Origin: a virus
Taxonomy: Duplodnaviria > Caudoviricetes
DNA: 54,284 nucleotides
Strand: one strand, 5' to 3'
Virus record (IMG/VR): IMGVR_UViG_3300027963_000004
Location: 1-54,284 of that record
Of the stretch, positions 27,145-44,932 are shown one piece after another. The translations under genes were made by a program, and so were the position numbers. Below the pieces are notes generated by a model. The model was not told where the DNA came from and made no database searches. It saw only the letters and a list, made by a program, of their open reading frames with translations. How positions within the stretch are numbered: position 1 is the stretch's first letter; every line of letters begins with the position of its first letter.

Positions 27145-27152
27145 GAGTACCC

Positions 27153-27338: not shown

Positions 27339-27361
27339 AAAAAGCCCCCCGTGAGGGGGGC
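27337..27361 (-). terminator. Intrinsic terminator at convergence of late and recombination operons
   Basis: GCCCCCC-TCAC-GGGGGGC-TTTTTTT on minus strand. Confidence 0.8.
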
Positions 27362-27396
27362 AAAGAAGGAGAGTGGCAACTGCTCCTCACGTGAAA

Positions 27397-29139: not shown

Positions 29140-29141
29140 AA

Positions 29142-30977
29142 TTATTTCTTCCGCTTAATGACGCCATCTACATCTTTATAAAGGCTACCTTGTGGCAGAT
29201 TAACAAATACAGGATCATCTGGTCCTTTTATTTTTGGTGGTTGACTAGGGGCTTCATTTGCAGAATTAGCCTTAGATGGTTCAGTTGCAGGATTGCTGGC
29301 ATCTTTAGGAGCAATTACCTTAGGCGCTTCAGTCTTAGATGTATTTACTCTACCCAATAGGTCTGCATTTGCCTTGCGAATGCGGTCAGCCTGTTGATCA
29401 TAATGGTCACGAATTACGCCCAACTCATCAGACTGTAAGAATTTACGGAATGTGCCTCCGGGATTCTTATCAGTATAAGCAGTCCAAGCCTTGTGAACTT
29501 CTTGGTCAAATTTAGAATCAAGGATAAGAGCCTCAGACTTGAGGCGAACCACTCGAGCCGTATCATTTGATAAGCCTTGTAAGTCATTAGTAAGGCGACC
29601 CTCACTCTCAGTAATAGCACCTTGACCTTGGAGCAGTTTGCGGGACTGAACTTGGAGTTTAGCCACAGACTGTAGATACAAAGTTAATGCATCTCGATCC
29701 TCTGCATTCAACTTATATGTTGCCAATTGCTGCATAGGAAGTCGGACTGCCCCACCGGGAGTTGATAACCCCTCCTGCAAAGCACGCCCAATTGCATCCT
29801 TAATGCCGGGATTGTTAAGCAACTCAAATGCTCTTGGGTTGTTTTTAGCAAATGAAATCATGTCATTTGCAGTATTGATGTTTGTTCTAGCCGCAAGGAA
29901 TGAAGTATCTAACTGACCAATCTTCTTGGACTCTTCTTCATTCTGACGCTTAATTCGATCCGCATTGAGTTCTTTTTCAATCTTCTCTTCTTCAGGAGTC
30001 TTAGGGGCTTGACCGGGTTTGTTCTCAATCCAATTCTTTTTACGAAACCAGTCATTTTCAATCTCTGGATTGCCTGCCTCATCAGCCCTTTTCTTAGTTG
30101 CTTCCCATTCTTTAAATACGCTATAGGGAACTTTTTTAGGGCCTACAAAGCGACCAAAATCAACCTCAATGATTGTGTCAGGGTTTTGTTCTAAAAACCG
30201 TTGTTGGCTGCGAGAGTAAGGGGTGTTGCCAATTTGAATGACATCTTCCCTTTGCATCTTGGCTTGCTCTCTAAGGCTATCACCAAATTCTTTACCACCA
30301 ATCTCATAGGCAATAGCAATGTCTTCATCCGTAATCATCTTAGTTTTACGGGGTGCGCCAGTCTGAGTTACGGCACTACCACCCCCAGGCCCCTCACCCT
30401 TGGGTGCGCCCGCGGCTAGATTAGTCCCGGTAGTGCCAATCTCAGTTTGACCTGCGGCAGTTGGAGTGCGTTCTATACCAGAGCCTAAAGTGGTTTCTTG
30501 ACCCATACCAAGTCGGTTAGCCATGAACTCACTCATTAAGTTTTGCTTGTTCAAAGCCATTTTCTTTTCTTGCAAATCTAACTTCATCTTATTGTAAGAT
30601 TGCTCACGGACTGCCTCTTTTTCAGCCTCATCAGCAGCCATATCGGCGGCATAGCCCATAGACTCACCAAAAGAACCAGTCTTTGTAGGCTTGGCAAAGC
30701 CAGCCGCCATCTTCATCAAGACAGGGTCAAACATTCGGTTCTGACGCGTTCCTAGGCTCTGCTGGAGCAAATCAATTTGATTTGACATGGCTTGCCTTTC
30801 CTCGCGCAATTTACGCAAGGAAGAGGTTGCAAAGTCTTCCTGAGGGGCTTCCTCATTATCCATGCCCGCTATCCGGGCAGCATTCATTCCCACATTAGGT
30901 GTTTGCCCCTGTGGTTGTGCAGGGGGTGCTTTAGGTGGGGCTACTGCATTCAAACCCCCTTGAGGTATATCTGCCAT
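29142..30977 (-). CDS. Putative ejection/internal virion protein
   Basis: 611 aa, helical; GQGAITESEG motif; terminal LPQGSLYKDVDG; ejection-block position. Confidence 0.6.
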   Translation of the reverse strand: MADIPQGGLNAVAPPKAPPAQPQGQTPNVGMNAARIAGMDNEEAPQEDFATSSLRKLREERQAMSNQIDLLQQSLGTRQNRMFDPVLMKMAAGFAKPTKTGSFGESMGYAADMAADEAEKEAVREQSYNKMKLDLQEKKMALNKQNLMSEFMANRLGMGQETTLGSGIERTPTAAGQTEIGTTGTNLAAGAPKGEGPGGGSAVTQTGAPRKTKMITDEDIAIAYEIGGKEFGDSLREQAKMQREDVIQIGNTPYSRSQQRFLEQNPDTIIEVDFGRFVGPKKVPYSVFKEWEATKKRADEAGNPEIENDWFRKKNWIENKPGQAPKTPEEEKIEKELNADRIKRQNEEESKKIGQLDTSFLAARTNINTANDMISFAKNNPRAFELLNNPGIKDAIGRALQEGLSTPGGAVRLPMQQLATYKLNAEDRDALTLYLQSVAKLQVQSRKLLQGQGAITESEGRLTNDLQGLSNDTARVVRLKSEALILDSKFDQEVHKAWTAYTDKNPGGTFRKFLQSDELGVIRDHYDQQADRIRKANADLLGRVNTSKTEAPKVIAPKDASNPATEPSKANSANEAPSQPPKIKGPDDPVFVNLPQGSLYKDVDGVIKRKK

Positions 30978-30979
30978 GT

Positions 30980-31945
30980 TTACTCCACTAGAGTGCCAGT
31001 TGCATCATAAAAATTACCACGACCATCATGGTAAGCCGCTCCCTCAGGAGGATTAGTTGGGTCAATATAACCACCTTCACCCTTATAAATTACCCCGCCA
31101 TCTGCTTTAGGGGTTGGGGTAGGATTATTAAGGAATGAACCAAGCCCAGAAAGTAAGGTTGCAATTTGAGATAAAGGTGAATTGGAATAAGCGCCAGCAA
31201 CTGGGCCAACAGACTGTTTAGTCTCACCAGTAGGAATCTGATACTGCCTCATTAATTGAGAATAGGCTTGTGCTTGGGCCATAGGGTAATCAAGCATTTT
31301 TTGACCTAAAGCCTGTTGCTGACCACCATAATCACTCAAGGCTCTTAATCCACCAAGACCAAGTCCTTGTTGCTGAGTACCTAAATTTCCAAAGGCTTGC
31401 CCAGCCTGTAAAGCGCGAGACAAGTCATTCTGAGCCATTGTTCCAGCCTGTGTATAACCTGACTGCAATGCACCCATTTGCTTACCAATTAAATCAGCCT
31501 GCATATCTCGCAAAGCATTACCAGTAATTTGAGATTGACGGCGAGAGCCAAATTGACCAGTTCCAATAGCCGCTCCACCTAAATTAGGCAATACATTTTC
31601 TTGAATGTTGCGTTGTTGTAGACGCCCCATCTCATTAACCACACCAGAGGTGTAGGGATTCATGTAGTCGCCAATGACATCAGGAACTGTTGTAGCACCC
31701 GCTTGACCTAAAAGTTGAGAGCCTGCACCCATAGACCCAGCACCTGCAAAAGCAACGTCTGGAGCCATCTGAAAGGCTTGCTGTTGTAATGGGCTAAAGC
31801 CAGCCACGCCGCCTTGTTGGACAGCATTCTGACCCAAGTTTGCAATGTCTTGGAGGTAGTTGGTATAGAACTCAGGTGCAGTCTGTTGGGATTGAACCGT
31901 CTGGACTACATCTGGTAGCGGATCACCTTGGAGTAAGCCAGCCAT
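30980..31945 (-). CDS. Putative ejection (DNA pilot-like) protein
   Basis: Q/G/A-rich; VAGFSPLQQQA, YMNPY, GQFGSRR. Confidence 0.65.
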   Translation of the reverse strand: MAGLLQGDPLPDVVQTVQSQQTAPEFYTNYLQDIANLGQNAVQQGGVAGFSPLQQQAFQMAPDVAFAGAGSMGAGSQLLGQAGATTVPDVIGDYMNPYTSGVVNEMGRLQQRNIQENVLPNLGGAAIGTGQFGSRRQSQITGNALRDMQADLIGKQMGALQSGYTQAGTMAQNDLSRALQAGQAFGNLGTQQQGLGLGGLRALSDYGGQQQALGQKMLDYPMAQAQAYSQLMRQYQIPTGETKQSVGPVAGAYSNSPLSQIATLLSGLGSFLNNPTPTPKADGGVIYKGEGGYIDPTNPPEGAAYHDGRGNFYDATGTLVE

Positions 31946-34866
31946 TATTTTGCTCCTTTAAGGTATGAGGTTAGAGTCTTTGTTTTAGGTGGAATCTTAT
32001 TAATTGGTGCAGAGCGTTTGTGGGCGCGAATGCTCTCACGGAACTTATCCAAAGCCTGTGCGCCAGCCTTAGTTGAACCATTACCAATCTGAGCAACAGT
32101 CTCAGCATCAATGACATATTCACCATCAGCAAGCATTGCTGGAATGTCATCCGATTGTCCATCACCCGGACCATGTACTGGTGCGCCATCACGGAAGTTT
32201 AAACGACCATTTGTAACTGGAACATTTGACCATGCAGGCAGTCCACCACTACGCATACCCGGCGGTTTCATTCCCATAGGAGACATACCTTGTGGAGGCA
32301 TACCTTGCGGCCCCATGTTCTGCGGAGCCATACCCTGTGGTGCCATTCCTTGTGGCTGCATACCTTGAGGGGCCATACCCTGCGGAGACATCCCTTGAGG
32401 TGGCATTCCTTGTGGAGCCATGCCCGGCGCGCTTAATCCACCCATAGCGGGTTGTTGAGGCTGTTGCATTGGTTGTGGGTTGTACAAGTTTTGCATTGGG
32501 TCAACAGGCTTACCATAAGTAAAGTAAGTATTATCTGAATTGCCTAAGCCGCCTTGAGGTTGACCGCCATCAGCCATACCCTCTACCTCTTCTGTTTCTG
32601 TCACATCTTCAATAGGAGTATCTATATCTGTGGTCTCATAACCATAGTCACCCTCATTCACAGGGTTAAAACCCGGAGCATTGAGGTTTTTACCCAACTC
32701 AGTACCATAAAGGTCTGGCATCTCCTCAGGAGTTCCATAGTCTTCATAATTAACAAACTTAGCGGGGCCTACACCAAAATCAGTTGTACGCGGATTGATA
32801 TTACCTACTTTAGACATATCAAGGGCTTGTTGGTTTTGACCGCCACCGCCACCTAAAATGTCAGAGTTGCCAAGCAAAGAGCCAAGTATTGCACCCGCAG
32901 CACCAGCACCTAAATAGCCAGAGCCTCCAATTAAGTCTTGGATTTCTTGCCAAGTGCTTTTTTGTTCAGCAGTTTTCTTTTGCTCATCAATAAGGTCTTT
33001 GGGAGTTTGCGGCTTGGTAGTAGGGTTCATTCTTGTGCCGCCCGTACCACCCACATTGGTAATTGGCTTAACATCAACACGACCACCACCCAATGGAATT
33101 ACGCTTCCGCTTGGGTCGTAGACAGTCATGTTTCCATAACCATCGGTCACAATGTAATTACCCTCATCGTCCCTTGTGGTTTGATAACCATCAGTTGTAC
33201 TAGACACATTCCCATCAGAGTCAAATGTCATGGTGCTGCCATCATCAAATGTCTGAATGTAGGAGCCATCATCAAAATATTGAACCCCCGGAGTTGGCGT
33301 GAAATTTGGGGGGCCATCACTCTCTTCAGAAATTCCACTATTTTTTTGAGGTAAATTATTTAAAAATTCTTGTAAATCATCTTGATTTGCTGACTCAAGA
33401 TAGCCACTGTTTTGATAATTTTCAGCAGTATCTACTGGGCCATAGACAACATCACCATCAGCAAAGTGTGGGACTCCACCATTTCTCATCATTGTTATTA
33501 AGCCTCCACGCTTGACCTCATAGTCATCTCCACCATCGTAAGTAAAGCCAGTATTGTCTGCTAATAAATAATCATTTTCATTAGGAAATTCTTCGGCTAT
33601 GATAGTGTCATCATTATATGTTGGCCCGATTCTTGAATTTATATCGTTATCATCATTCGGTAGGGAAGGCCCAGTATCAGCCAAATTCCAAGTACCATCA
33701 TCAGCCAAATTCCAAACTTCATTAGTATCAGGGTCTGTATAAGTGTTGTCAGCAAAATGAGTTGTATCCTCTTCTTCATAAAGAGAATAACCATCATCAC
33801 CTTTAGTTGCAAATAGATTGCCATCGGCTGTATAAATATTGCCATTTGAATCTTCAAAATAGCCATCACCAATATCATTCATGCCATCTGTACTAGCAAC
33901 AGTTGTATCGCCAATACTACGAGTATTCCCCGTTGGTGTAGTTGTTTCAACATCTTCATCAACCTCTGCGGCGCGATAAAGTACAGATGTACCATCAGGC
34001 ATAGTCTTATAAGTGTTGCCCAAAGAATCGGTGGTGTATTCGTCTTCAGAAACATCGGCGGCACGATAAAGTGATGAAGTTCCATCAGGCATAGTTTTGT
34101 AGACGTTACCTAAAGAGTCAGTTGTGAACTCTTCTTTGTCATCACCAAAACCAGTTCCTGTTGGCAATTTAGTTGTTGGGTTTATTGTGCTTGTAGTTGG
34201 CTTTGTTGTACTAGTGGTTGGTTTAGTTGCAGTTCCACCAGTCACAGGCTTTGTAGCAGTTCCACCCAGTGTAGGCTTTGTAGCAGTTCCACCCGATGTA
34301 GGCTTGACAACGCTTGTAACTTTATTTCCACCTGTTAATTTATCAATAACTGCTTTAGTTCCAGCACCAATAACTGCACCAGTAGCACCACCAGTTAGAA
34401 CTTTAGATAAAGTGCTACTACCTGAGGGTGTTGTTTTAGTCACAGTAGGCAACTTACTTGTACCAGTTCCAGTTCCCGTAACAGAAGTAGTTTTAGTTGC
34501 TGGAGTTGATACCGCAGGCTTAGTAAATGATGTCAAAGGTTTAGATGTAGAAGTGCCAGCCTTAGTCTTACCTGTCATTACAGAACTTGGCTTTGCAGTT
34601 GTAGTCGTTGCTTTTTTTGTCAAAGATGCAGGTGTTGTCTTGCTACCTAAGGTAGATATAGCCGTACTAGTTGTGGGCGTTTTGGTAGTTGAAATTGGTT
34701 TAGAACCACTTCTAACATTAGTAATTTTTGAAGTGCCAACCAAAGAAGATGCAGGTCTAGCCCCAGTGCCTAAGCGAGGACTATCTACTGTCCCTCGAGT
34801 AACACTAGTTATTCCACGAGCCTGAGGCAATGATTTATTTGATGTACGTTTAGATAGAATTGCCAT
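31945..34866 (-). CDS. Large low-complexity putative internal virion protein
   Basis: 973 aa; T/K/S-rich N-terminus, acidic repeats, PQGM repeats, C-terminal GPGDGQSDDIPAMLADGEYVIDA domain. Confidence 0.65.
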   Translation of the reverse strand: MAILSKRTSNKSLPQARGITSVTRGTVDSPRLGTGARPASSLVGTSKITNVRSGSKPISTTKTPTTSTAISTLGSKTTPASLTKKATTTTAKPSSVMTGKTKAGTSTSKPLTSFTKPAVSTPATKTTSVTGTGTGTSKLPTVTKTTPSGSSTLSKVLTGGATGAVIGAGTKAVIDKLTGGNKVTSVVKPTSGGTATKPTLGGTATKPVTGGTATKPTTSTTKPTTSTINPTTKLPTGTGFGDDKEEFTTDSLGNVYKTMPDGTSSLYRAADVSEDEYTTDSLGNTYKTMPDGTSVLYRAAEVDEDVETTTPTGNTRSIGDTTVASTDGMNDIGDGYFEDSNGNIYTADGNLFATKGDDGYSLYEEEDTTHFADNTYTDPDTNEVWNLADDGTWNLADTGPSLPNDDNDINSRIGPTYNDDTIIAEEFPNENDYLLADNTGFTYDGGDDYEVKRGGLITMMRNGGVPHFADGDVVYGPVDTAENYQNSGYLESANQDDLQEFLNNLPQKNSGISEESDGPPNFTPTPGVQYFDDGSYIQTFDDGSTMTFDSDGNVSSTTDGYQTTRDDEGNYIVTDGYGNMTVYDPSGSVIPLGGGRVDVKPITNVGGTGGTRMNPTTKPQTPKDLIDEQKKTAEQKSTWQEIQDLIGGSGYLGAGAAGAILGSLLGNSDILGGGGGQNQQALDMSKVGNINPRTTDFGVGPAKFVNYEDYGTPEEMPDLYGTELGKNLNAPGFNPVNEGDYGYETTDIDTPIEDVTETEEVEGMADGGQPQGGLGNSDNTYFTYGKPVDPMQNLYNPQPMQQPQQPAMGGLSAPGMAPQGMPPQGMSPQGMAPQGMQPQGMAPQGMAPQNMGPQGMPPQGMSPMGMKPPGMRSGGLPAWSNVPVTNGRLNFRDGAPVHGPGDGQSDDIPAMLADGEYVIDAETVAQIGNGSTKAGAQALDKFRESIRAHKRSAPINKIPPKTKTLTSYLKGAK

Positions 34867-34869
34867 GGC

Positions 34870-36648
34870 TTAACCTTTTCCCAATAGTGCTGTAAGCCCA
34901 GAGATATTTGTCAATGGGGTTAATTTTGTAACATCCATTTTTTTAGGAGGGACATATGCAGGCGGTTTTGCAAATTGAGATTTTTGCATTGCCGCCATTT
35001 GTTGGGCAGTCATCGTCTTAGGCTTAACCGCGGTCAAACCACTTGTAGGTTTAGGTGCAGCAGTTGGAGTTTTAGCCGCTGTAGTTGGGCGAACCACATT
35101 CTTTGTAAGACCTTTAGTAAGATTTTGACGTATTAAATTTGTTCCTGTTGCAGTCAAAGCCCCTGTAGCCCCTTTACCAAAATTAGATAAGAAATCATTT
35201 GGTTTCTCTTCTATTAAACTTGCTGGTTTAGTTCCTGTTGGGCTAACTGCTGGAGTGCTTTCTCCAGAAATGTCTACAGGCTTATCTTCTTCAACTAAAG
35301 CCTTAACTTGAGCCAAGCCACTTGTATCAGCCGCAGAATTAACATCAATATTTGCACTTGTATCCACAGGAGCAAGCCCTGATACGACTGGTGTTGTGAC
35401 TAGAGTTTCAATTGGCGCAGTAGGCGTAGTAATGTCTTGAGAGACAGTAGCCAATCCACCCGTAGGAGTTGTATCAGTTGTCTCTGTTGTTACCCTAGTA
35501 GGGCTAACAGTATCAATCGTATCTGTTGTATCTGTTGTATCAACTGTATTTGTTCCAGTTGTAGTTGTTGCATCAACTGGCTTAGAAGTATCAACTGTGG
35601 CAATTAAATCAGATACATCAGGCGATAATTTAGCATCAGGAGTCTCTGTCCCAGAAACTGCCTCATCTCCACCTGCGCTCTTAACAAAGTCAGTAATCTG
35701 ACCAGTCAGCATATTGCCGACATTGCTTGCGCCTACATTGAGAAGGTCATTGAAAATCTTATCCCCATCCTTACCCTGAACAAGGTCACGGGTAACTGTA
35801 GAGGCAGCACTTCCAAGCAACTTAGAACCTGTTTCATCACCTACTTCATTACCAACAAAAGAACCTAAAGTACCCGCGGCAAGCCCCTCAACATTCAAAT
35901 CTCCTGTACGAGCAACTTGACCAATTGCTTGACTTGCTACTTGACCAGCCAATTTAGAGCCAGTCTCTGCCGCAATCTCAGACCCAAGGAATCCAGTTCC
36001 AGCAGATATTAATGTGCTTTGAAGAGCGGCATTAAAATCTCCTCCATTAGTAGCCGTATTGACTGCCAACTGCCCAGCCATTTTTTGTAGCATTGGGTCA
36101 GCCTCAGGGAGCAAAGTCTCCCCAATGGTACTCATAATGTTACTTGCACCCTCTGAAAGAGTGCTAAACATATTGCTCATACCCTCAACAGTTGTGCTTG
36201 CTGCTTCAGCAAATGAACTAACACTTGCCGCGCCCTCAGATGCGGCAGTTACCGCCTCAGCAACACTTGCCCCTTCACTTACAAGGCTTGCTGCCTCTGT
36301 AGCCTCAAGAACTGCACTAACACCCAATTCTTCAACAACTGCACTAGCAGCAAAGGTCTCTGCACTTGCAACAGCGGTAACCGCCTCAGTTGCCTCAAGA
36401 ACAGCAACTCCAGCCTCAACCGCCTCTGCGGCTCCGGCTACCTCTAAAATAGTTGCGGCAAAACCAGCCTCTGCGGCAAAAGCCGCCAAAGCATATGGGG
36501 CGGCAATAGCGGCAACAATAAGGATTGGATTTTCAGCAATAGTCTCAACAACTGTCTCAGCAACATCAACAACTGTCTCAACAACATCACCAACAAATTC
36601 AACTGCACCCTCAACTACATCTGATATGGCTTCAATAACGGCACTCAT
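34870..36648 (-). CDS. Putative first ejection protein
   Basis: 592 aa; amphipathic acidic N-helix, hydrophobic ILIVAAIAAPYALAAFAA, Gly-zipper-like middle, T/P-rich tail. Confidence 0.6.
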   Translation of the reverse strand: MSAVIEAISDVVEGAVEFVGDVVETVVDVAETVVETIAENPILIVAAIAAPYALAAFAAEAGFAATILEVAGAAEAVEAGVAVLEATEAVTAVASAETFAASAVVEELGVSAVLEATEAASLVSEGASVAEAVTAASEGAASVSSFAEAASTTVEGMSNMFSTLSEGASNIMSTIGETLLPEADPMLQKMAGQLAVNTATNGGDFNAALQSTLISAGTGFLGSEIAAETGSKLAGQVASQAIGQVARTGDLNVEGLAAGTLGSFVGNEVGDETGSKLLGSAASTVTRDLVQGKDGDKIFNDLLNVGASNVGNMLTGQITDFVKSAGGDEAVSGTETPDAKLSPDVSDLIATVDTSKPVDATTTTGTNTVDTTDTTDTIDTVSPTRVTTETTDTTPTGGLATVSQDITTPTAPIETLVTTPVVSGLAPVDTSANIDVNSAADTSGLAQVKALVEEDKPVDISGESTPAVSPTGTKPASLIEEKPNDFLSNFGKGATGALTATGTNLIRQNLTKGLTKNVVRPTTAAKTPTAAPKPTSGLTAVKPKTMTAQQMAAMQKSQFAKPPAYVPPKKMDVTKLTPLTNISGLTALLGKG

Positions 36649-37094
36649 TTTTGCCCTCCTCTGGCTTTGCCAAGGACTAGCGTGACTTGAAAGCCACCAT
36701 CTTTAGTTTTCTGGGTAGCAAAACCCATATTCGCAGGTTGATCACGGCCAATGGCATTAAATATATTTAAAATGGTTGGGTCGGAAAATTGTGTTACGAC
36801 CACATCAAATCCAACTTTGTAGGCAGAATCTGCAAAAATTCGGCTATTCTCTAAAAAGTTACGAGCAGTATCAGCATTTAAAGCGCGAAAGAATCCATAT
36901 CCCGGCTCTTTGGTCTTATGCACTACAAAAATAGTATTACCATGGCGCATCTTCCAAATATTAGGCAAACTGAATTCAACAGTCAGCATCTCTTTGACCT
37001 CTTTGACAGGACGACCAACCTTGGTATTCTCAGCAGCAATCTCAATGATTTGCTCACTTGTCAATTCTTGTTGTTTGCTGTCAACCATCTGCAT
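36645..37094 (-). CDS. Putative GNAT-like acyltransferase
   Basis: 149 aa with alpha/beta alternation compatible with a GNAT core; lies in the nozzle-to-ejection slot; fold is inference only. Confidence 0.4.
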   Translation of the reverse strand: MQMVDSKQQELTSEQIIEIAAENTKVGRPVKEVKEMLTVEFSLPNIWKMRHGNTIFVVHKTKEPGYGFFRALNADTARNFLENSRIFADSAYKVGFDVVVTQFSDPTILNIFNAIGRDQPANMGFATQKTKDGGFQVTLVLGKARGGQK

Positions 37095-37095
37095 A

Positions 37096-38205
37096 TCAAA
37101 GCCCTTTAAAAATTGCGCTGGAATAGATATTACCCATACCCGCGGCTAGACTTAGCACCAACCCATCTGGGGGGCTTGTCGGTTGCGAAAGATAAACCGA
37201 GTCGGTTTCGGTTCGGTTCTCAATTGCAGGGACAATTCCATTTCTGATGTCTTCTAGCAATAATAATGTTTCTAGCAATCCACTGCTACCCATTGTGTGA
37301 CCTATTTTCTGCTTGTAAGAGGTCGCAACAAATGCTTTTAACGTGTTACTTAAAGCATTTTTTTCAGACACATTGTTGGAATGCGTTCCAGTTCCATGTG
37401 TTTTTACAATTTTAATATTTTCTGGCTTAGTTTGGGTAATTTCTAATGCACCCTCTATAGCCTTTATAAAACCCTCACCATTTTCACATTGACCTATAGC
37501 ATTAGTTGAATTCTCGGATGCGCTATATGCCCCAATTAACTCAGCATAAGGTTTAATTCCTTGCATCTCTACTGCTTTTGCAGACTCAAATACCGCCAAA
37601 GCCGCGCCCTGACCAATTCTGAATCCAAAGTTAGTTGAGTCAAATGCGGAGGGTTTAATTCCCTCTTCCTCTTGTTTATTGGTCAAAACCGCTTTAGCCT
37701 CACCAAAAAATTCCAAAACTGAATTGGTAATTCCATCTTCTACAGTCAAAACAATTACTCTTTCAAAACCATAGAATTTCATTAGAGTCTGCACATCCAT
37801 CATTACTTTTAGGCTTGAGGCACAAGCAGAGGCATCAGTTACCACTTGGTCTATATCCCCAAAGGACTGAGCAGTACGCCCGGCAAAGACTTGGGTTAGG
37901 CTGAAAGGAAGAAACTTATAAATATAGTTAAGACGGTTGTCTGGATAAGAACGGGGGCCAATACCTGCAAAGTGAGCATTCCCACCCGCTAAAATAAAGG
38001 CAGTCTTACCCACAGGATTGTTTCTTAAATACTCAACAAGGACTGGGTCTAATACCTTGTCAGCCAATCGATGGGGTACATAAAATAACCCGCTCTTAGT
38101 TCTGTTGTAAGATTCAGGAAACCAATGAACTTTTTGGGGGTAAACTACATCATCAAATAACTCAATACTTGTTGTTGAGAGAGTACGATATTGCGTTAAA
38201 AACAT
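37096..38205 (-). CDS. Beta-ketoacyl synthase (FabB/FabF-like ketosynthase)
   Basis: Intact C-H-H triad: DASACASS, KTHGTGT, KQKIGHTMGSSG; also GFRIGQGAA; start overlaps ACP stop (TAATG). Confidence 0.9.
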   Translation of the reverse strand: MFLTQYRTLSTTSIELFDDVVYPQKVHWFPESYNRTKSGLFYVPHRLADKVLDPVLVEYLRNNPVGKTAFILAGGNAHFAGIGPRSYPDNRLNYIYKFLPFSLTQVFAGRTAQSFGDIDQVVTDASACASSLKVMMDVQTLMKFYGFERVIVLTVEDGITNSVLEFFGEAKAVLTNKQEEEGIKPSAFDSTNFGFRIGQGAALAVFESAKAVEMQGIKPYAELIGAYSASENSTNAIGQCENGEGFIKAIEGALEITQTKPENIKIVKTHGTGTHSNNVSEKNALSNTLKAFVATSYKQKIGHTMGSSGLLETLLLLEDIRNGIVPAIENRTETDSVYLSQPTSPPDGLVLSLAAGMGNIYSSAIFKGL

Positions 38206-38489
38206 TACTTGCAAGCCTCCAAAGCCTTTTCTACTGACTCTGGCTCTTGAGTTTTTCGGCTCATCAGCAAGTCATATAGTTCTTTAACTGTCTTTGGTGC
38301 CCATGTTTTAGTCTCATCATCATCAGGGATGCCATAGAGTTCACACAAGTACATCAGCATCACCAAGCCATCCAAACTGTCTAATCCAATATCCGCAAAA
38401 GCATCTTCCATACTCGTTGCAAACACAGGGTTTGAATGAGCGGGGCGGGCTAATTTGGCTATGGCATTAAACAGTTCAATAAAATTCAT
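38205..38489 (-). CDS. Acyl carrier protein
   Basis: 94 aa, acidic; FADIGLDSLD phosphopantetheine site; ELYGI.D; KTVKEL. Confidence 0.9.
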   Translation of the reverse strand: MNFIELFNAIAKLARPAHSNPVFATSMEDAFADIGLDSLDGLVMLMYLCELYGIPDDDETKTWAPKTVKELYDLLMSRKTQEPESVEKALEACK

Positions 38490-38743
38490 ACTTGGAGTTC
38501 CGTTGGTTGGTTAACGGCGCCAACAAGTGCTTGCGCCCAATCTTCCCAATTATTAAATACATAGGGGCCTGGGATACCCTCATTTGTAAAAATATCAATT
38601 GCTTTAAGACCAGATGCCCATTCTTTCCAATCCGTATGCTCATTAGGTATTGCTAACTGTTGACCTGCATATGCCTCACACATCAATGATGCCCATGACT
38701 GAAAAGTCTGAAAACGGGGGTCATATACAAGTGCAAGCGCCAT
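38486..38743 (-). CDS. Small Trp-rich tail-module protein
   Basis: Likely start MALALVYDPR 1 nt after nozzle stop; repeated W..WA motifs. Confidence 0.6.
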   Translation of the reverse strand: MALALVYDPRFQTFQSWASLMCEAYAGQQLAIPNEHTDWKEWASGLKAIDIFTNEGIPGPYVFNNWEDWAQALVGAVNQPTELQV

Positions 38744-38744
38744 A

Positions 38745-41000
38745 TTAACTTCCGTAAGGGCGAACATCGCCAATAGTTGCATTGAGGAGAACTTTACCCA
38801 TTTGGTAATCTCCACCTTGCTCATTACTCACAAAACGCAAGCGTATCTCTCTTCTTTGCTCTCGCATATCTATCTTTCCCGTATCTGGTTCAAAATAGTA
38901 TGGATCAGAAGTCACATCTTGAGATTGAGCAAATGGTCTACCCGTAATCTGCACACTCATTGTTCCATTTTGAATAAAGTCAGGTTCAATACGCTCTATC
39001 CTTAACCAATAATTTTCCCCAATTGGAGCAGTTTGAGATGGGCCGCCTTGAACTAAACCAAGGTCAGATGTTTCAAAATAACTTTCAATTGCATTAGCCT
39101 CTTCGTTAATAACTTCATCAGTTCCAATTTCGTGTTGCCACAAAATAACTTGACCAGCCACAGTTTCAAAATTTGCAGTCTCAACCAATGTTGCTGTTGC
39201 GTTTGCAGATAAAGTTAAATTCAAACCAGAAAATGACATGGTTCCTGATACAGCACTACTGTTGACTACGGATAGCGTAATGGTCGTTCCCACAATCGTG
39301 GTCACAATAGCGTTTGTGCCAATGCCTGTGCCAGTCACGGATTGATTTAACACAATACCAGTTGCGCTACTGACCACAATAGTGCTTGCCCCAGAAGTGC
39401 CAGTTGCTGTCGGTGATGCCGCATTAGGTGTAATCAAAGTAATCAATGCACCAGATGGAACGCTTGCGGACACAACCTCTTGACCAACAGCAACCAAATT
39501 GTTTGGCGCAATTCTAATGACCGCGCTTGCGTTTGTTGTTGAGATTGATGTCGTAAAAATTATTTCCTGCTCACTCAATGTTGCGCCAGCATTGATAGGG
39601 TAATGGAATACTTGAGAGAAGTACCCAGCCGTGCGACGAGCGCCCAAAGCCTCGCCTGCGTCATACCAACAATTTTCTCGCACGTTATAGATGATGCAGT
39701 CGTTGCATTCTTCTGAGTCGCCAGAAGGAAAGAACCACCAAATTTCGCCAAAACGAGGAACCTTGTTAACAAAAACTTTTTGCTGTTGAGCGTAGTTCAA
39801 GTTGTCAAAAAAGTAGTTTTGGTTGAACGTATTTGTAATTTCTTTAACCACGCCGTTGTACAACAGAAAACGGTCAACACCAATCCAGTAGTAGATGCCG
39901 TCATACTCAATAACGCACTGCGACGAAAGGATTGAGGACTGACTAGAAATAATGTCATACCGCCAATAGAAGGTTTGGGGGACTGAGGCAACCGTAATAG
40001 TGGTTGGCGTGTAGGACACACGAATCAACGAATCAAGCGCCCAAAACAACCCAGATGGAGCATTAGAGCCGCCTCGCACTGGCAAGCCTTTGACAATCTT
40101 TGTAGAGGATACATTGACCTCGTTTGAATCTGGGCCGTTCCAATCAAATGGGTCTCCAGCAACACAATTTTTAATTAAACCGTTGTCTCCATACACAAAA
40201 ACATATGGATGCAAAACAACTACGCCTCCAGCAACTTCAATAACGTCGCCTGTTGGGGTTGTGCCAGTAGTATCCGTAAGGGGGGACAAGGTTGTGCCAT
40301 TAATAATTCCAGCCAAAACTGGGGTTACTGTAGTTTGGTCAATTTGCTCTAAGTTCTGACCAGCGTGCGCCAACAGCAACTGATTTCCAGAACCTTGCGC
40401 GTCAAACGTAGAGTCAAACTGCCAAAGGTTCAAATCGCTTTCCGTAAACCCATCATTAATTGTTGCCACCTTAATTGAAAAACCACTACCCGTGCCACCA
40501 ATTGTTGCGGCGGTTGCGCTCAAAGTATTGCCAATAACATACCCATTACCAGCCTTTGTCAGGGTTACTGTAGTTACTGTTGCGCCTGCCACCACAATTG
40601 TTGCCTTTGCACCAGTGCCAGAGCCGCCAGTTAAAGTTACATTGGTGTACGTTCCGTTGGTGTATAGCGTGCCACCCACTAAAGTGTTAAGCGTTAGGAC
40701 TAGTCCAGTAAAAGTAAATTGATTGACACCAGAACCAATCCCAAGGTTGTTAATATTGACAACCTCAAGACCATTGTTATATCCATTGAAAACTGAGTTG
40801 ACGCCATCAACCGAGTTAACATAGATACCACGAGAGTATCCTTTTGCGTTGCTGATAATTGCGCGATAGCCACCAACTTTTCTTGGACGCCCACGTTGAA
40901 AACGCACCCAAAGTGCGTCTGTGTAAAAGTTCATATCAAATATTGTGCCGTCCCGTTGTACGCCGGGCAAGGTATCAATAGTATATACTTTCTTAACCAT
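38745..41000 (-). CDS. Tail nozzle/hub protein (P22 gp10/T7 gp12-like)
   Basis: 751 aa beta-rich; WVRFQRGRPRKVGG, YYWIG..FLLYNG.V, FGEIWWFFP, IERIEPDF. Confidence 0.7.
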   Translation of the reverse strand: MVKKVYTIDTLPGVQRDGTIFDMNFYTDALWVRFQRGRPRKVGGYRAIISNAKGYSRGIYVNSVDGVNSVFNGYNNGLEVVNINNLGIGSGVNQFTFTGLVLTLNTLVGGTLYTNGTYTNVTLTGGSGTGAKATIVVAGATVTTVTLTKAGNGYVIGNTLSATAATIGGTGSGFSIKVATINDGFTESDLNLWQFDSTFDAQGSGNQLLLAHAGQNLEQIDQTTVTPVLAGIINGTTLSPLTDTTGTTPTGDVIEVAGGVVVLHPYVFVYGDNGLIKNCVAGDPFDWNGPDSNEVNVSSTKIVKGLPVRGGSNAPSGLFWALDSLIRVSYTPTTITVASVPQTFYWRYDIISSQSSILSSQCVIEYDGIYYWIGVDRFLLYNGVVKEITNTFNQNYFFDNLNYAQQQKVFVNKVPRFGEIWWFFPSGDSEECNDCIIYNVRENCWYDAGEALGARRTAGYFSQVFHYPINAGATLSEQEIIFTTSISTTNASAVIRIAPNNLVAVGQEVVSASVPSGALITLITPNAASPTATGTSGASTIVVSSATGIVLNQSVTGTGIGTNAIVTTIVGTTITLSVVNSSAVSGTMSFSGLNLTLSANATATLVETANFETVAGQVILWQHEIGTDEVINEEANAIESYFETSDLGLVQGGPSQTAPIGENYWLRIERIEPDFIQNGTMSVQITGRPFAQSQDVTSDPYYFEPDTGKIDMREQRREIRLRFVSNEQGGDYQMGKVLLNATIGDVRPYGS

Positions 41001-42229
41001 CAGAACACTCCGCCAGCAACACCACCCGTAAAGTTACCCGTTCCAACAATAGCCAAACCAGAGGCAGAAACTGTTGAGCGCAAGACACCAAGAATGGAAA
41101 TATTAAACTCACCAGAAGCCGCACGGTAAACGCCCGTTGTGGTTTCTGATGCAAAGTTCAATGAAGGCGCTCCAACAGAACCATTGTTCAAACTAATATT
41201 TGAAGAGCCTGCAAGAATTGTATTGGCGTTATATAAATTAACTGAATCACAAACTAATGTGGCTTGAGTTCCTGTGGTCAACACCGCAGTAGCGCCAGAA
41301 CCCGTTGTAATTGTGACGGTGTAAGCATTTGATGTTGCGTTGACAATGTAGTAAACCTGAACTGTTGACGGAACAACAATTGTGACGTTGCCCGTCAATG
41401 CGCCCGTGTACTTTTGAATGACGTTAGAAGCCTCTGAAGCAGTTAGGGTGTAAGTTCCAGTCAAAACTGCTTTGGATAATTGGGTAAACGCAAATTGCGT
41501 ATTTCGACCTAAGCCAACCGTGTAGAACTGAGTTCCACTACAAACAATGATGCAAGAGTCTGCGGGTTGCAAAACAATTGACGCAGAACCGTTGATTACA
41601 TTACCACCACTTCCAGCAACAGTCAAAGCACCTGTTCCACTATTGCGTACAAACATAAACCAATTGTCGGCAAGTGTAGACGCAAGGGTTAAAGTCAAAG
41701 TTCCTGCGCCACCTGTCCAAACATAAGTGCTAGAGCGGTCAGTAGTAAGTGCAGTGTAGTTAGAAGAGAAGGTTGTAACAGGCTGTGATTGGTTGAGCGT
41801 CTGACCAATTGCCAATAAACCATAACCAGCAAGGGTAGCGGCGTCTGCGCCAGATGAGCCAATACCAAATGCAATGATGCCCCATGTTCCTGCGGTCGTT
41901 GCATTCGTGACAATGTAGATGTACTGTGCTTCGCCTGCGGCTATGGTGACAATCGTGTTTGCGCCAGTGTAGTCTTTGACCGTTACAGCAACAGCACCGA
42001 CGTTACGAATTAAAGCATCTTGACCTACAGAGGCTTGGTTGGCGGGTGGCATCCACAACTCATTAGCCGTAGTAGTAGTTGACACCTCCATAATACGAGC
42101 CGCGGCATCATCAGTAGATTGACCATTGATAGGCCAAGCCAATTGCAAGTCTGTTGTCAGAATAATTCGGCGATACGATACATCCGTTGGTTGAACAACG
42201 TTACCGGTAAAGGGGGAGTTGTAACTCAT
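41000..42229 (-). CDS. Tail structural protein (needle/fibre-like)
   Basis: 409 aa T/G/S-rich beta protein; C-terminal GSVGAPSLNFASETTTGVYR. Confidence 0.6.
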   Translation of the reverse strand: MSYNSPFTGNVVQPTDVSYRRIILTTDLQLAWPINGQSTDDAAARIMEVSTTTTANELWMPPANQASVGQDALIRNVGAVAVTVKDYTGANTIVTIAAGEAQYIYIVTNATTAGTWGIIAFGIGSSGADAATLAGYGLLAIGQTLNQSQPVTTFSSNYTALTTDRSSTYVWTGGAGTLTLTLASTLADNWFMFVRNSGTGALTVAGSGGNVINGSASIVLQPADSCIIVCSGTQFYTVGLGRNTQFAFTQLSKAVLTGTYTLTASEASNVIQKYTGALTGNVTIVVPSTVQVYYIVNATSNAYTVTITTGSGATAVLTTGTQATLVCDSVNLYNANTILAGSSNISLNNGSVGAPSLNFASETTTGVYRAASGEFNISILGVLRSTVSASGLAIVGTGNFTGGVAGGVF

Positions 42230-42231
42230 AG

Positions 42232-42867
42232 TTAGGTATCCAGTACAGAGGCTTGACGGTCACCAATACGTTGAATGTCTTCCGTCTTTAAGGTTTGCAT
42301 GATTAAGTCATAGTTTTGCTGCCACATAGGCATACGCTCATCATTCTTTAAGAATGGCATAGCCTGCAACAAAGAGCCATAAAGCAATGCCTGTGGGGCA
42401 TAAATAGTAAACCAGTTAGTCTGATTGGAAGAGTCAAGTGGCTGAACTCTTTCATAGTACAGAACTTCGAAAGTATAACCAGCGGCTGGAGTTGGTGCTA
42501 CCAACCAATGGGTATAGTCATAATCTGCATAATATTCAGGGATTCCTGTTTCTGTAGCATCAGGCCAATACTCCCTCAAATACTCATACTTTCTTAAAAG
42601 AACAGGAGTTCTTGACCCATTAACAACCACATTCATGGAAACAGTTTTATGCCATCGAGCAGGCTTATCTAAAATAGCCTCAGTAGCAACCATTGTGCTT
42701 TCATTAACAGTTAGGTTGCCAAGAAATTTGATTTGACTTGCAATGATTTGCTCTGCCAACATAATGAAAAGAGGAATTTTTTCAAGGGTAGCAGTATCAG
42801 TCCTCTCCAAATATGACTGAATGTTTTCAACTAAACTGTCATAAGTCATTACTGAGGCGGTAGTCAT
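42232..42867 (-). CDS. Head-tail adaptor protein
   Basis: MTYDSL..I..YLER, FIMLAE, VAPTP, TNW....PQALLYGSL. Confidence 0.75.
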   Translation of the reverse strand: MTTASVMTYDSLVENIQSYLERTDTATLEKIPLFIMLAEQIIASQIKFLGNLTVNESTMVATEAILDKPARWHKTVSMNVVVNGSRTPVLLRKYEYLREYWPDATETGIPEYYADYDYTHWLVAPTPAAGYTFEVLYYERVQPLDSSNQTNWFTIYAPQALLYGSLLQAMPFLKNDERMPMWQQNYDLIMQTLKTEDIQRIGDRQASVLDT

Positions 42868-42904
42868 ATTAAATCCTTTGTTCTTTTTAACATTTTAATT
42901 TCTC

Positions 42905-43381
42905 TTAGGATAAAAACAACTGTTTTTCGTCAATTCTGCGCTTTTGTAACCCTTTAAGAACTTTTCCGCCAGCCATGCAATACTTTAAGAGTTCTTCCGC
43001 CGCCCCTTCCATATCCCCGCGAAGAGCCTTTTGACGGAGGGTGCTTCGCTGTAAAGTCCCCAAACCAACATTAAAAGCAAAACTACACAAAGCATCAAAT
43101 TGACCTTGGGTAAGTGGGATAGGTATGAACCGTTCCACACCTCGTTCAAAACGGAGTAAATCAGATTCAAGAATTCCATCAACTTCCCCCATAGAGAAGA
43201 TTCTATTATCTTCTTCTTTCAGTTGAACTTCGTTGCGCTTATCAATTGTTAAATTACCCTGTGTAGGGTAAAGAACATGACCAACGCCAATAGTCCATAG
43301 TAACGCTGGACATCTATAAGGTTTCTGTCTTACACCTTCATGGTGTTTGATAACCTTTATGGCATTGGCTGATATTTTCAT
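42905..43381 (-). CDS. Endolysin, GH24 lysozyme
   Basis: HEGVRQKPYRCPALLWTIGVGH, QFDALCSFAFNVG, GLQKRRIDE. Confidence 0.92.
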   Translation of the reverse strand: MKISANAIKVIKHHEGVRQKPYRCPALLWTIGVGHVLYPTQGNLTIDKRNEVQLKEEDNRIFSMGEVDGILESDLLRFERGVERFIPIPLTQGQFDALCSFAFNVGLGTLQRSTLRQKALRGDMEGAAEELLKYCMAGGKVLKGLQKRRIDEKQLFLS

Positions 43382-43893
43382 TTGCCAAAGGCTCTCCCAC
43401 CAAAGTGGAATGCAATGATTGAGGCAAACAAAGTTTGAGTTTCATTATCCCAAATCTGGTCAGCCAACACAACAAAGTCTATACCCTCAGAAATACCTTT
43501 ATAGACCAATGCGCAGTCAATAGCGCAGAGTAAAAAGAAAAATCCGTAGGTAATAACAGGGCGGACAGAGGCTCTTAGGTTATGCATCCACTCAGAAGTT
43601 CCCTCATTCAAACTTATGTCGTGGGCATATAACGCTTGCATTTCAGCCTGTTGAGCGCCAATTAAAACTTGTTTGTCTTGAGATGAGGTCTCCATAGCAA
43701 TCTGCTCAATATGGATATGTTCTACCCTTTCTTGAGCCTCAAAGCCAAGTTTTCGCATTTCCAACTCACGTTGAATCTGCAACTGCGCCATTTCCAACTC
43801 ATGGCTTTTGTCACTTCTGTCTTGAAAGTAATCTAATAGTTTTGGCAAACCGCCAGCCAAAAATGAAATCAAAGTTGAAAATAGTGTAAACAT
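43378..43893 (-). CDS. Holin-like membrane protein
   Basis: N-terminal hydrophobic helix, LRASVRPVITY, two further TM segments, FHFGGR; adjacent to endolysin. Confidence 0.65.
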   Translation of the reverse strand: MFTLFSTLISFLAGGLPKLLDYFQDRSDKSHELEMAQLQIQRELEMRKLGFEAQERVEHIHIEQIAMETSSQDKQVLIGAQQAEMQALYAHDISLNEGTSEWMHNLRASVRPVITYGFFFLLCAIDCALVYKGISEGIDFVVLADQIWDNETQTLFASIIAFHFGGRAFGK

Positions 43894-44156
43894 TACTTCC
43901 TCTTTTCTCGTTCTTCAAGTAATTGAACCTTTACTTGTAGTTGGTGAATGTCTTTATAAACTTCTTCTTTCAGCCTATGCCTTGCCTCTGCACTTAAAGG
44001 TGAGTCAGTCGGCACATTTTCTTTAGTGATTAGTGCTGGCATCTGCCCTTCAATCTTAGTCAGCCGTGTAGAGAAGTCAGACACTTGACCGAGTAGCCAT
44101 GCTAGACACGCCACAACAATAGGAAGTACCGCTTTTAGGACGTCTTGAATATTCAT
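43893..44156 (-). CDS. Small membrane-anchored coiled-coil protein (lysis module)
   Basis: N-terminal TM then coiled coil. Confidence 0.55.
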   Translation of the reverse strand: MNIQDVLKAVLPIVVACLAWLLGQVSDFSTRLTKIEGQMPALITKENVPTDSPLSAEARHRLKEEVYKDIHQLQVKVQLLEEREKRK

Positions 44157-44368
44157 AGTCCAAAAACTTTTTTAACCATTTCAGCGGCAACGCCGGGGCC
44201 AAGCAACACGGCTAGGATGACTACATACAAGAGGTACTCAATCCTATTCATGCGCTTGGAACCTTCGTCAAAGCGGGTTTGAATGACCTCGTACCGTTGA
44301 GCGCATATCGCCTCGTGAACGCTTAAACGCTTGTCGGTCTCGTTAGCCAATTCTTCAACCCCTTCCAT
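44153..44368 (-). CDS. Small holin/XhlA-like membrane protein
   Basis: RLSVHEAICAQRY, coiled coil, C-terminal TM. Confidence 0.6.
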   Translation of the reverse strand: MEGVEELANETDKRLSVHEAICAQRYEVIQTRFDEGSKRMNRIEYLLYVVILAVLLGPGVAAEMVKKVFGL

Positions 44369-44373
44369 GTAAC

Positions 44374-44541
44374 TTACTCCGCTTTTGGCTCTTCTGCTTC
44401 AGCAGGCGGCAATTGACTTTGGGCTTCTTGTTGAATGCCTTGAATCAAATTCGCTACTTGAGCATATGGTTGATTCCCCAAATACTGAAGAATGCCATTT
44501 ACCAAATTGGTTGATAAAGATATATTGCTTTCCATTGCCAT
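44374..44541 (-). CDS. Small tail-fibre-associated protein (55 aa)
   Basis: AAGGA SD; LVNGILQYLGNQPYAQVANLIQGI; below ORF-track cutoff. Confidence 0.65.
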   Translation of the reverse strand: MAMESNISLSTNLVNGILQYLGNQPYAQVANLIQGIQQEAQSQLPPAEAEEPKAE

Positions 44542-44559
44542 TTTCCTTTAAAAAAATTT

Positions 44560-44586
44560 CCGCTGTTATGGGTCAGCGGTTCACCC
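44560..44586 (-). promoter_or_regulatory. Candidate H-type RNA pseudoknot in leader of the 55-aa gene
   Basis: GGGU-GAA-CCGCUG-ACCC-AUAA-CAGCGG. Confidence 0.45.
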
Positions 44587-44594
44587 TTCTTCTA

Positions 44595-44921
44595 TTATGC
44601 CGAAGGTGTTGCCCAAGGTAAAGGGGTGTTCTCAGGGCTAACAGGTGGTGTAATTAGGCTGTCAATCTGCCCTTGTACACAAGACTGTGCGCTGTCTATT
44701 TGGTTCTCAGGAATCCAACTAATAACTAACGCCTCAGTTAGACTTGCGTAAGGCACAAATGTAGTCTGGTCTGTAGAGTCAAACTGTGTGTTGCCTTGGA
44801 TAGATGCAGTATAAGTGCCGTCTACTCCTGTTACTTCCCATAGTGCGTTAATTACATAGTTGGGGTCAGGTTGTTGTACTGTGTACATTGCTGTGATGCG
44901 AGTGGTAAAGACTGTTGCCAT
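44595..44921 (-). CDS. Tail-fibre-associated protein
   Basis: 108 aa; FVPYASLTEALVISW, PLPW; directly after fibre gene. Confidence 0.65.
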   Translation of the reverse strand: MATVFTTRITAMYTVQQPDPNYVINALWEVTGVDGTYTASIQGNTQFDSTDQTTFVPYASLTEALVISWIPENQIDSAQSCVQGQIDSLITPPVSPENTPLPWATPSA

Positions 44922-44932
44922 TTTAATTCTCC

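Follow-up and report, generated by a model that had tools for sequence, protein, structure and literature searches.

How the ejection proteins of short-tailed phages enter or cross the host envelope is only partly understood, and the chemical role of the small proteins encoded upstream of them, T7 gp13 and P22 gp14, is unclear; the accessible text of one ejection-protein review contains neither 'acyl' nor 'acetyl'. Here, we examine a locus that bears on this question, namely positions 34870-38743 of the IMG/VR record IMGVR_UViG_3300027963_000004 (Caudoviricetes), of which positions 1-54,284 form the window analysed. In its late operon, an acyl carrier protein (ACP) and a ketosynthase (KS) are encoded directly ahead of a 149-amino-acid (149-aa) protein with a predicted GNAT fold, between a nozzle-like gene and genes for proteins of the internal or ejection type. 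What is such a pair doing among virion genes? A first-pass annotation had proposed that the three proteins form a system for lipidating an ejection protein, and as a whole this interpretation is partly supported. That the cassette is real, widespread and unusual is confirmed. As to its function, acyl-ACP-dependent lipidation of the protein encoded downstream of the GNAT-fold protein is our best hypothesis, which we regard as possible and advance tentatively, at somewhat below an even chance.

The gene order on the minus strand begins with a 751-aa nozzle-like protein (38745-41000), which matches a PHROG 'virion structural protein' and has a relative annotated 'phage stabilization protein'. It is followed by a small conserved protein (38486-38743; about 85 aa from M28, within a mechanically called open reading frame, or ORF, of 112 aa at 38486-38824), the 94-aa ACP (38205-38489; DSLD motif with Ser38), the FabF-like KS of the elongating type (37096-38205; 369 aa from an ATG at 38205, or 372 aa if a TTG at 38214 is used) and the 149-aa protein (36645-37094), which is assigned to the GNAT fold from its predicted structure. 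The next two genes encode internal/ejection-type proteins of 592 aa (34870-36648; no family match) and 973 aa (31945-34866; C-terminus matching tape-measure-type PHROGs), and proteins of 321, 611 and 580 aa complete the series. After the last of these, a lytic-enzyme-like gene, stands an intrinsic-terminator-like hairpin of seven GC pairs and a T run (27344-27361).

The ORFs and coordinates behind the earlier claim of an ACP and an intact-triad KS lying between nozzle-like and ejection genes are as described, and the tight or overlapping junctions were reproduced throughout. A 1-nt gap separates the nozzle-like gene from the small ORF, provided that the latter starts at 38743; the small protein and ACP genes share an ATGA (38486-38489); the ACP stop and the KS ATG form a TAATG at 38205; a single nucleotide (37095) separates the KS from the 149-aa gene, which in turn overlaps the 592-aa gene by an ATGA (36645-36648). 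The KS probably starts at the ATG within the TAATG, as judged from a GGAGG 9 nt upstream of it, the TTG at 38214 being the start of the mechanical ORF. No terminator-like site occurs on the minus strand within 34870-38743, the strongest such site on that strand in 27000-45000 being the hairpin at 27361-27344 that closes the late block, and promoter-like sites on the minus strand are not in excess (26, versus 30.1 in shuffled sequences, standard deviation 5.4).

The small protein has no Pfam, PHROG or NCBIfam match. Its start is probably M28 (38743), giving 85 aa, because conservation begins near residue 29. Caulobacter phage GB2A, which is devoid of ACP, KS and GNAT, has a homologue of it after the nozzle-like gene, and by this comparison the small protein is part of the basal structural module, outside the cassette. 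The 112-aa ORF was also considered as an AcpS-like phosphopantetheinyl transferase or as a cassette member, and was rejected in view of its homologue in cassette-free GB2A and of the lack of an ACPS match. In the complete 54,284-bp record, neither an ACPS-type phosphopantetheinyl transferase (PF01648) nor FabD (PF00698) was found, in agreement with the first-pass annotation, by a search that detected each family in 10 of 14 control genomes. Since the phage encodes no such transferase, phosphopantetheinylation of the ACP would need a host enzyme.

Is the KS a genuine enzyme, and is it simply a captured host FabF? It matches both halves of the Pfam ketosynthase domain above the cut-off of 20.8 bits, Ketoacyl-synt_C (PF02801) at 6.8e-16 (58.8 bits) and ketoacyl-synt (PF00109) at 9.9e-07 (29.0 bits), the latter over profile positions 138-249 only. 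The best matches in the PDB are FabF structures (7.2e-24, residues 101-338, about 25-28% identity). FabF (KAS II) is a thiolase-fold KS with the same Cys-His-His triad and lysine as the phage protein: Cys130, His272, Lys301 and His306 (372-aa numbering) align to the FabF catalytic residues (ACAS, HGTGT and KxxIGH motifs) and are invariant in 82 homologues as well as in 12 distant family members. The KS is also the most conserved gene of the block, with 72-92% identity versus 41-95% for the GNAT. Because its catalytic residues and the ACP serine are invariant and it is the most conserved gene here, the KS is pointed to as a working enzyme; an inactive or purely structural KS is unlikely given these invariant residues.

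Nevertheless, this sequence comparison indicates that the phage protein is a KS but no FabF orthologue. It is about 40 residues shorter than FabF and scores 110.8 bits against the fabF equivalog TIGR03150, the cut-off of which is 493.75. In FabF and FabB, the C-terminal gating loop reads G-F-G-G. In the phage family the corresponding segment, LAAGMGN, is invariant in the 82 sequences, and GMGN instead of GFGG is also found in the 12 distant members, which confirms the divergent loop noted earlier. A search of 1.84 billion representatives returned 54 relatives at E ≤ 1e-30; nearly all are about 330-390 aa long at full length or are pieces of such proteins (31-76% identity over the matched stretches), the exceptions including four multi-domain synthases of some 7,000 aa. 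Weaker matches are mostly multi-domain polyketide synthases and ordinary KSs at about 26-30% identity. A quick maximum-likelihood tree with SH-aLRT support only was built from 63 family and 4 outgroup rows, after removal of rows sharing over 85% identity with one that was kept (a reduction from 203 to 63), of KSs shorter than 330 aa and of loci with fewer than 520 nt after the KS. In this tree, the family is split from the four outgroup KSs with a support of 99, and the GNAT-linked KSs all fall in a single clade of 51 rows (support 98). The KS is therefore not nested among host FabF proteins, and a recent transfer from host FabF is ruled out by the low identity to KSs from outside the family and by its separate place in the tree.

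The partner of the KS is convincing as an ACP when taken as a profile and weak when taken as a single sequence. Alone, the 94-aa protein scores 15.1 bits (E 0.028) against the Pfam PP-binding family, under the gathering score of 20.8, and E 0.003 against TIGR00517, again below the cut-off. A profile of 51 sequences, however, matches ACPs in the PDB (best 7.7e-05), the two DSLD motifs being in register, and all but one of the 60 PDB rows listed for it are ACPs. Across the 51 homologues Asp37, Ser38 and Asp40 are invariant and Leu39 is kept in at least 90%. The AlphaFold2 (AF2) model has a predicted local distance difference test score (pLDDT) of 90, and its predicted helix 38-51 begins at Ser38; in a Foldseek search with this model all rows listed are ACPs or carrier proteins, at E values of only 0.04-0.3. 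These profile and model comparisons identify the protein as a divergent ACP.

The third member, the 149-aa protein, has no Pfam, PHROG or NCBIfam match. It has 178 homologues, and among the 120 listed the fullest annotation is 'hypothetical protein' and none carries a Pfam domain. In a profile search of the PDB, the sole match was unrelated (E 0.19), so that a sequence link of the family to any PDB chain was rejected. Its predicted structure is more informative. The AF2 model (pLDDT 85.4, predicted template-modelling score 0.81) has the element order H-H-E-E-E-H-E-H-E-E, which is that of the GNAT core, alpha1-alpha2-beta2-beta3-beta4-alpha3-beta5-alpha4-beta6-beta7. Comparison of the model with 48,161 chains by VIA gave Z values of up to 10.8 (root-mean-square deviation 2.9 Å over 123 residues), and at least 45 of the 50 rows listed are titled acetyl- or acyltransferases. 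Foldseek against the PDB gave 18 matches at E ≤ 0.001, mostly GNATs, headed by the acyltransferase domain of NcdE (1.9e-04); four of the first 12 rows are RNase E catalytic domains, with template-modelling (TM) scores of 0.34-0.38. On the basis of the model, then, the protein has a GNAT fold, as the first-pass annotation had predicted. Ser6, Leu11, Glu40, Asn53, Asn73, Asp75 and Phe112 are invariant in the family. The conserved Asn73 and Asp75 lie in the beta4-alpha3 loop of the model, and Phe103 and Asp105 at the beta5-alpha4 junction, two sites at which GNATs hold the pantetheine arm. At three loci (L104 6957-7589, L107 6159-6797 and L131 6957-7592), the GNAT is lengthened by a Gly-, Pro- and Met-rich C-terminal extension of about 60 residues, and the following gene begins about 200 nt beyond.

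The 149-aa gene occupies the same slot as T7 gp13 and P22 gp14, after the tail hub/nozzle genes and before the internal or ejection proteins, and its product is close in size to both (PF11090, 138 aa, and PF11039, DUF2824, 151 aa, respectively). In BFVD its model matches entries named 'Internal virion protein A' and 'Protein inside capsid A' (E 6e-05 to 2e-03, TM score 0.41-0.52), and the nearest named cluster in the ESM Atlas is DUF2824 (score 0.94, 146 shared features), which we treat as a lead only. A sequence link was tried and rejected: the two reference proteins match their own Pfam families, whereas the 149-aa family has no match to PF11090 or PF11039 and aligns to each protein with an hhalign probability of 0.1%. 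The positional analogy with gp13 and gp14 drawn earlier is supported by the gene order of the T7 and P22 records and by the 'internal virion protein A' fold matches, and a sequence relation is not. Furthermore, the proteins encoded after T7 gp13 and P22 gp14 begin differently from those encoded after the GNAT here. A GNAT-fold protein in the slot before the ejection genes was already known, because the available text of the Cobavirus paper reports that SIO1-like phages have a GNAT next to their internal virion proteins and likens it to T7 gp13 (PMC6775973).

How general is the arrangement? IMG/VR holds at least 384 relatives of this KS, and at least 586 when the family alignment is used. We examined 215 viral loci from three scans (the best 80, then 55, then 80). 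By a hidden Markov model and distance rule, 219 of 225 evaluable loci, the 14 genome loci counted in, have an ACP immediately ahead of the KS. Five of the six misses are KSs cut by a contig end, at which the ACP is still found by tblastn; in the sixth (L244) the ACP adjoins a shorter KS. With these six artefacts of the criterion explained, every KS among the evaluable loci has an ACP upstream. Directly downstream, a GNAT of the 149-aa family follows in 173 of 191 evaluable viral loci (73/73, 47/48 and 53/70 in the three scans) and in 2 of 13 genome loci. The order, with its start/stop overlaps, is strictly kept even where the KSs have diverged to about 35% identity. Hundreds of viral contigs show the same arrangement, which is more than chance, and in support of the first-pass annotation the ACP-KS-GNAT series is fixed at this locus across deep divergence.

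One subclade, nested inside the GNAT-linked clade, separates the parts. In it, the ACP-KS pair lies in the early/replication region, after an ORF that resembles an SNF2-type helicase (a label from reading the translation by eye) and before a protein of about 103 aa, whereas the GNAT keeps its place after the small protein and ahead of a large internal protein starting MSAV or MGGV. Both records of this kind that are more than 50% complete, G001 and G011, keep both parts about 20 kb apart (GNAT at E 4.8e-49 in G001, KS at E 8.0e-146 in G011); nine fragments of the unlinked-GNAT subclade (21-46% complete) were negative and are uninformative (all five of one set, at 21-35% completeness, and four of a further five, at 32-46%). 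G001 also has an inserted 154-aa ORF resembling an HNH endonuclease by eye (L220 4125-4589, minus strand), which separates the gene for the large internal protein from that for the 321-aa homologue.

The conserved neighbour on the other side is a protein start rather than a whole protein. In 179 of the 181 loci that could be evaluated, the next ORF begins -4 to +3 nt from the stop codon of the GNAT gene, and 116 of 119 distinct N-termini fit M-[SGATP]-[AGVF]-[VIAL], a motif that was not used to find the ORFs; one of the three exceptions is a miscalled start. Position 2 is Ser in 63 of the 119, Gly in 37 and Ala in 12, position 3 is Ala in 91 and position 4 is Val in 95. The start is followed by acidic, hydrophobic amphipathic repeats, with 20% D/E and 2.5% K/R over the 45 N-terminal residues, and then by a D/N-P motif ahead of a hydrophobic stretch. 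In the 592-aa protein this module reads MSAVIEA..., acidic amphipathic repeats, ENP and a hydrophobic stretch, and the remainder is hypervariable. The MW202545-like and marine subclades have one protein, from 500 to over 1,800 aa long, after the GNAT; in the former its C-terminus matches that of the 973-aa protein, the last 100 or so residues of which are common to GB2A gp065c and to the single large protein of other subclades. In the 973-aa protein itself, these residues are preceded by long Thr/Ser/Pro-rich tracts and a run of P-Q-G-M repeats.

From the hypervariable remainder and the single-protein subclades it follows that the conserved element is the N-terminal module and not the 592-aa protein. 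The latter, which the first-pass annotation had named as the most plausible target, finds a tblastn match in a minority of loci only and is rejected as the conserved target in that form. The nearest cultured relative, GB2A, encodes counterparts of the nozzle-like protein, of the small protein, of the 973-aa C-terminus and of the 321-aa protein, and lacks the ACP, the KS, the GNAT and the N-terminal module alike.

Prediction of a complex between the GNAT and residues 1-60 of the 592-aa protein, a check that the annotation had suggested, gave an ipSAE of 0.39 (runs of 0.40, 0.13 and 0.39) against 0.00 for the best control; at least 66% of contacts are common to the runs, and the pLDDT of the partner is 49-57. 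When the tool was calibrated, 58 of 80 solved complexes reached its mark, as did 2 of 110 mismatched pairs, but only 7 of the 80 scored 0.60 or less. The model gives weak support to binding of the 592-aa N-terminus by the GNAT.

Taken together, the phage would carry a three-part acylation system within its late operon. A host phosphopantetheinyl transferase would first convert the 94-aa ACP to its holo form. On this private carrier, the KS would then condense malonate with an acyl primer taken from the host, yielding an acyl or beta-ketoacyl chain that is kept separate from the host pool; host enzymes would be needed for any further reduction. Finally, the GNAT-fold protein would take the acyl-ACP as donor and acylate the protein translated directly after it, most plausibly at the free N-terminal amine of the (M)-S/G/A-A-V-V start, and this modification would help the ejection protein to enter the host envelope. 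The proposal draws on gene order, on co-occurrence and on a single weak complex prediction; the observations behind it are the folds, the intact catalytic motifs, the strict gene order, the retention of both parts when unlinked and the conserved N-terminus.

Comparable systems exist in cells. Private ACP and KS proteins that depend on a housekeeping synthase are known from NodF/NodE/NodA and from AcpXL with its own KS pair and LpxXL. There, a special chain is built with the FabD, FabG, FabZ and FabI of the host and is passed by a dedicated acyltransferase to one acceptor; the acceptors are sugars or lipid A, not proteins, and the systems are cellular, not viral. For proteins, the toxin-activating acyltransferases provide a precedent, because, in the accessible part of PMC8510554, they are described as lipidating delivered, membrane-active proteins encoded by adjoining genes, such as CdiA (by CdiC) and the RTX toxins. 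These enzymes (HlyC, ApxC and CdiC) are about 150-170 aa long, use acyl-ACP as donor and, as far as that text goes, rely on a His/Asp catalytic pair; the 149-aa family has a conserved His59 (kept in at least 90%) and an invariant Asp75. No sequence relation to the HlyC-type enzymes cited by the annotation is seen, the 149-aa protein having no HlyC-family Pfam match; among the VIA and Foldseek structure rows listed, none is a toxin-activating acyltransferase. HlyC-type enzymes also differ in using the ordinary acyl-ACP of the host, with no dedicated ACP or KS, and in acylating internal lysines, a residue nearly missing from the conserved N-terminal module here.

Several observations weigh against lipidation by this route. 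As regards the enzyme, the GNAT motif A, Q/R-x-x-G-x-G/A, forms the pyrophosphate-binding loop. This motif is missing from the 149-aa protein, whose beta4-alpha3 loop reads R-A-L-N-A-D-T-A-R-N and has no glycine; none of 67 family members matches any Pfam acetyl- or acyltransferase family or HlyC at E ≤ 1, and His59 is not invariant. A survey of 166 candidates, 262-2000 aa long, turned up no fusion of the GNAT to a larger protein, which is weak evidence. As regards the acceptor, a small residue at position 2 is common in the other late proteins of this genome, and the conserved N-terminus could instead mark the protein for packaging or processing; according to the annotation of the P22 record, gp7, which is encoded after gp14, loses its first 20 residues. 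As regards the donor, GNAT-fold proteins fill the same slot in phages that have neither ACP nor KS (T7 gp13, P22 gp14 and SIO1 pc40), so the slot as such needs no phage ACP-KS; a KS search of a phage collection gave one real relative only. Why a dedicated KS should be needed when host acyl-ACP is at hand has no explanation.

The ACP-KS pair is, moreover, modular. No GNAT follows the KS in 18 of the 191 evaluable viral loci. In the complete T7-like genome G003 (L142 5612-7889), a 128-aa ACP and the KS are followed by a 269-aa, desaturase-like di-iron protein with weak, below-cut-off Rubrerythrin and acyl-ACP-desaturase matches; the cassette lies between the tail-fibre genes and the terminase, and no GNAT of the 149-aa family was detected in this genome. 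At another locus (L146 5250-7020), the gene for a DUF2269 integral-membrane protein stands between ACP and KS, directly upstream of an SU10-type portal gene. In cells, the KS family is present in 14 of 185,579 species genomes, all 14 of them metagenome-assembled genomes (MAGs). On a 470-kb contig of a Sulfurovaceae MAG (L234 3517-10869), genes for an ABC transporter, ACP, KS, 4HBT thioesterase, ACP, KS and O-methyltransferase follow one another, a cluster that resembles a type II polyketide or aryl-polyene-like pathway. Basal members of the KS family lie in such Sulfurovaceae and Campylobacterales clusters, again without the GNAT. A Rhodocyclaceae MAG contig of 89.8 kb carries an ACP-KS pair (L241 5591-7062) whose KS and ACP are 69% and 52% identical to those of this phage and whose KS is nested in the phage's own subclade; no other gene of the phage window lies within 6 kb, the neighbours being an FAD/NAD oxidoreductase, a DUF6345 protein, a GIY-YIG protein and an ECF sigma factor, and the pair may hint at a host or at a transfer. 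Together, the MAG contigs L237, L239 and L241 hint at a betaproteobacterial host. The pair, as G003 and the cellular clusters demonstrate, has a life of its own, and the claim that it belongs to the ejection module holds for the 173 loci with a downstream GNAT and not for the early-region, desaturase-like, portal and MAG contexts. In favour of lipidation, on the other hand, the desaturase-like and 4HBT thioesterase genes that follow the pair elsewhere also look like genes for enzymes that handle acyl-ACP, which fits a scheme in which ACP-KS is joined by one product-using enzyme.

This mobility speaks for the principal alternative, in which ACP and KS are an auxiliary lipid-metabolism pair lodged in a tolerated site of the late operon, beside an unrelated morphogenesis factor of the gp13/gp14 type, and boost or redirect host fatty-acid or membrane-lipid synthesis during infection. 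The loci without a GNAT and the occupied slots of phages without ACP-KS fit it equally, and phage ACP and fabF genes are routinely listed as auxiliary metabolic genes in the accessible parts of PMC11705849 and PMC10653327; those papers, together with PMC8224337, report ACP- or fabF-like phage genes as aiding host fatty-acid metabolism. As far as these texts go, however, the reported cases are single genes or read counts. The strict order and codon overlaps down to about 35% KS identity speak against such a pair, as does its position inside a structural operon and not at a module boundary; both informative genomes with unlinked parts retain both, and a KS and an ACP without FabD, FabG, FabZ and FabI would be odd tools for raising lipid flux. 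We consider this alternative somewhat unlikely, and it is the main rival to lipidation of the downstream protein.

In a second alternative, which we judge rather improbable, the three proteins do cooperate and the acceptor is a small molecule (an N-acyl amino acid, a signal of the acyl-homoserine lactone type or a lipid) or a host protein, upon which the GNAT might act after being delivered as an internal virion protein. GNATs that use acyl-ACP on small molecules are indeed among the structural matches (the acyl-homoserine lactone synthase TofI at Z 9.4, NcdE and Rv1347c), and proteins of the T7 gp13 type are named internal virion proteins; TofI, NcdE and Rv1347c, however, match no better than ordinary acetyltransferases, all Z values lying within about 1, and this reading leaves unexplained why the GNAT is almost always coupled translationally to the next gene and why the product of that gene has a conserved N-terminus. 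That the 149-aa protein is a non-catalytic chaperone with a GNAT fold, holding the ejection protein by its hydrophobic, acidic N-terminus up to the point of assembly while ACP-KS is irrelevant to it or acts in another role, has the slimmest chance of the three: it would suit the lack of an acetyl-CoA motif and of family matches and a complex prediction that indicates binding at most and not catalysis, but the invariant polar residues Glu40, Asn53, Asn73 and Asp75 cluster at the GNAT cofactor site and look more like an active site than a chaperone surface.

Lipidation of the downstream protein thus remains the reading that we prefer. A broader version of it, that tailed phages lipidate their own ejection proteins, with the GNAT-fold protein ahead of the ejection genes in podoviruses, T7 gp13 and P22 gp14 included, acting as an acyl-ACP-dependent N-acyltransferase and a private ACP and KS added in this clade for a special chain, seems to us unlikely. 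The myristoylated membrane-penetration peptides of non-enveloped animal viruses would be the counterpart of such phage lipidation.

The 54,284-bp record is complete, with direct terminal repeats and a completeness estimate of 100%, and nearly all of its coding is on the minus strand. It encodes a major head protein (906-1820), a portal (4754-7261), a large terminase (12292-13707), an endolysin (42905-43381), two tail fibres (44933-50238), a DnaB-like helicase and a DNA methyltransferase. When portal proteins are compared, the Caulobacter phages RW, KcrB, RLK and GB2A (46%) come out as its closest cultured relatives, followed more remotely by the Roseobacter phages CRP-901 and CRP-902 and the Pelagibacter phages HTVC027P and HTVC023P; the only close relative in GenBank is the uncultured MW202545.1, with a KS identity of 60%. 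A 1,674-aa protein (7264-12288, minus strand) lies between the large terminase and portal genes, and its residues 1468-1603 match, below the cut-off, the PF18760 family (ADP-ribosyltransferase domain of polyvalent phage proteins) at E 3.4e-05. Within the head-gene block, a 140-aa protein (3978-4400, minus strand) has a Cpn10 (GroES-like) domain (E 1.2e-09).

Our literature searches returned no description of an ACP-KS-GNAT block in an ejection operon. As far as these searches show, a private ACP and KS joined to the GNAT of the pre-ejection slot has not been described before. Hundreds of phages with a working-looking KS and a private ACP beside this GNAT are a clue to acyl transfer. If lipidation were refuted, the cassette would still represent a well-defined and widespread phage KS family with an altered gating loop. 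If it is true, this would be the first phage-encoded protein-lipidation pathway known to us; it would give an assayable function to a widespread class of assembly factors, and some of the 'fabF/ACP auxiliary metabolic genes' of viromes would be virion-maturation genes.

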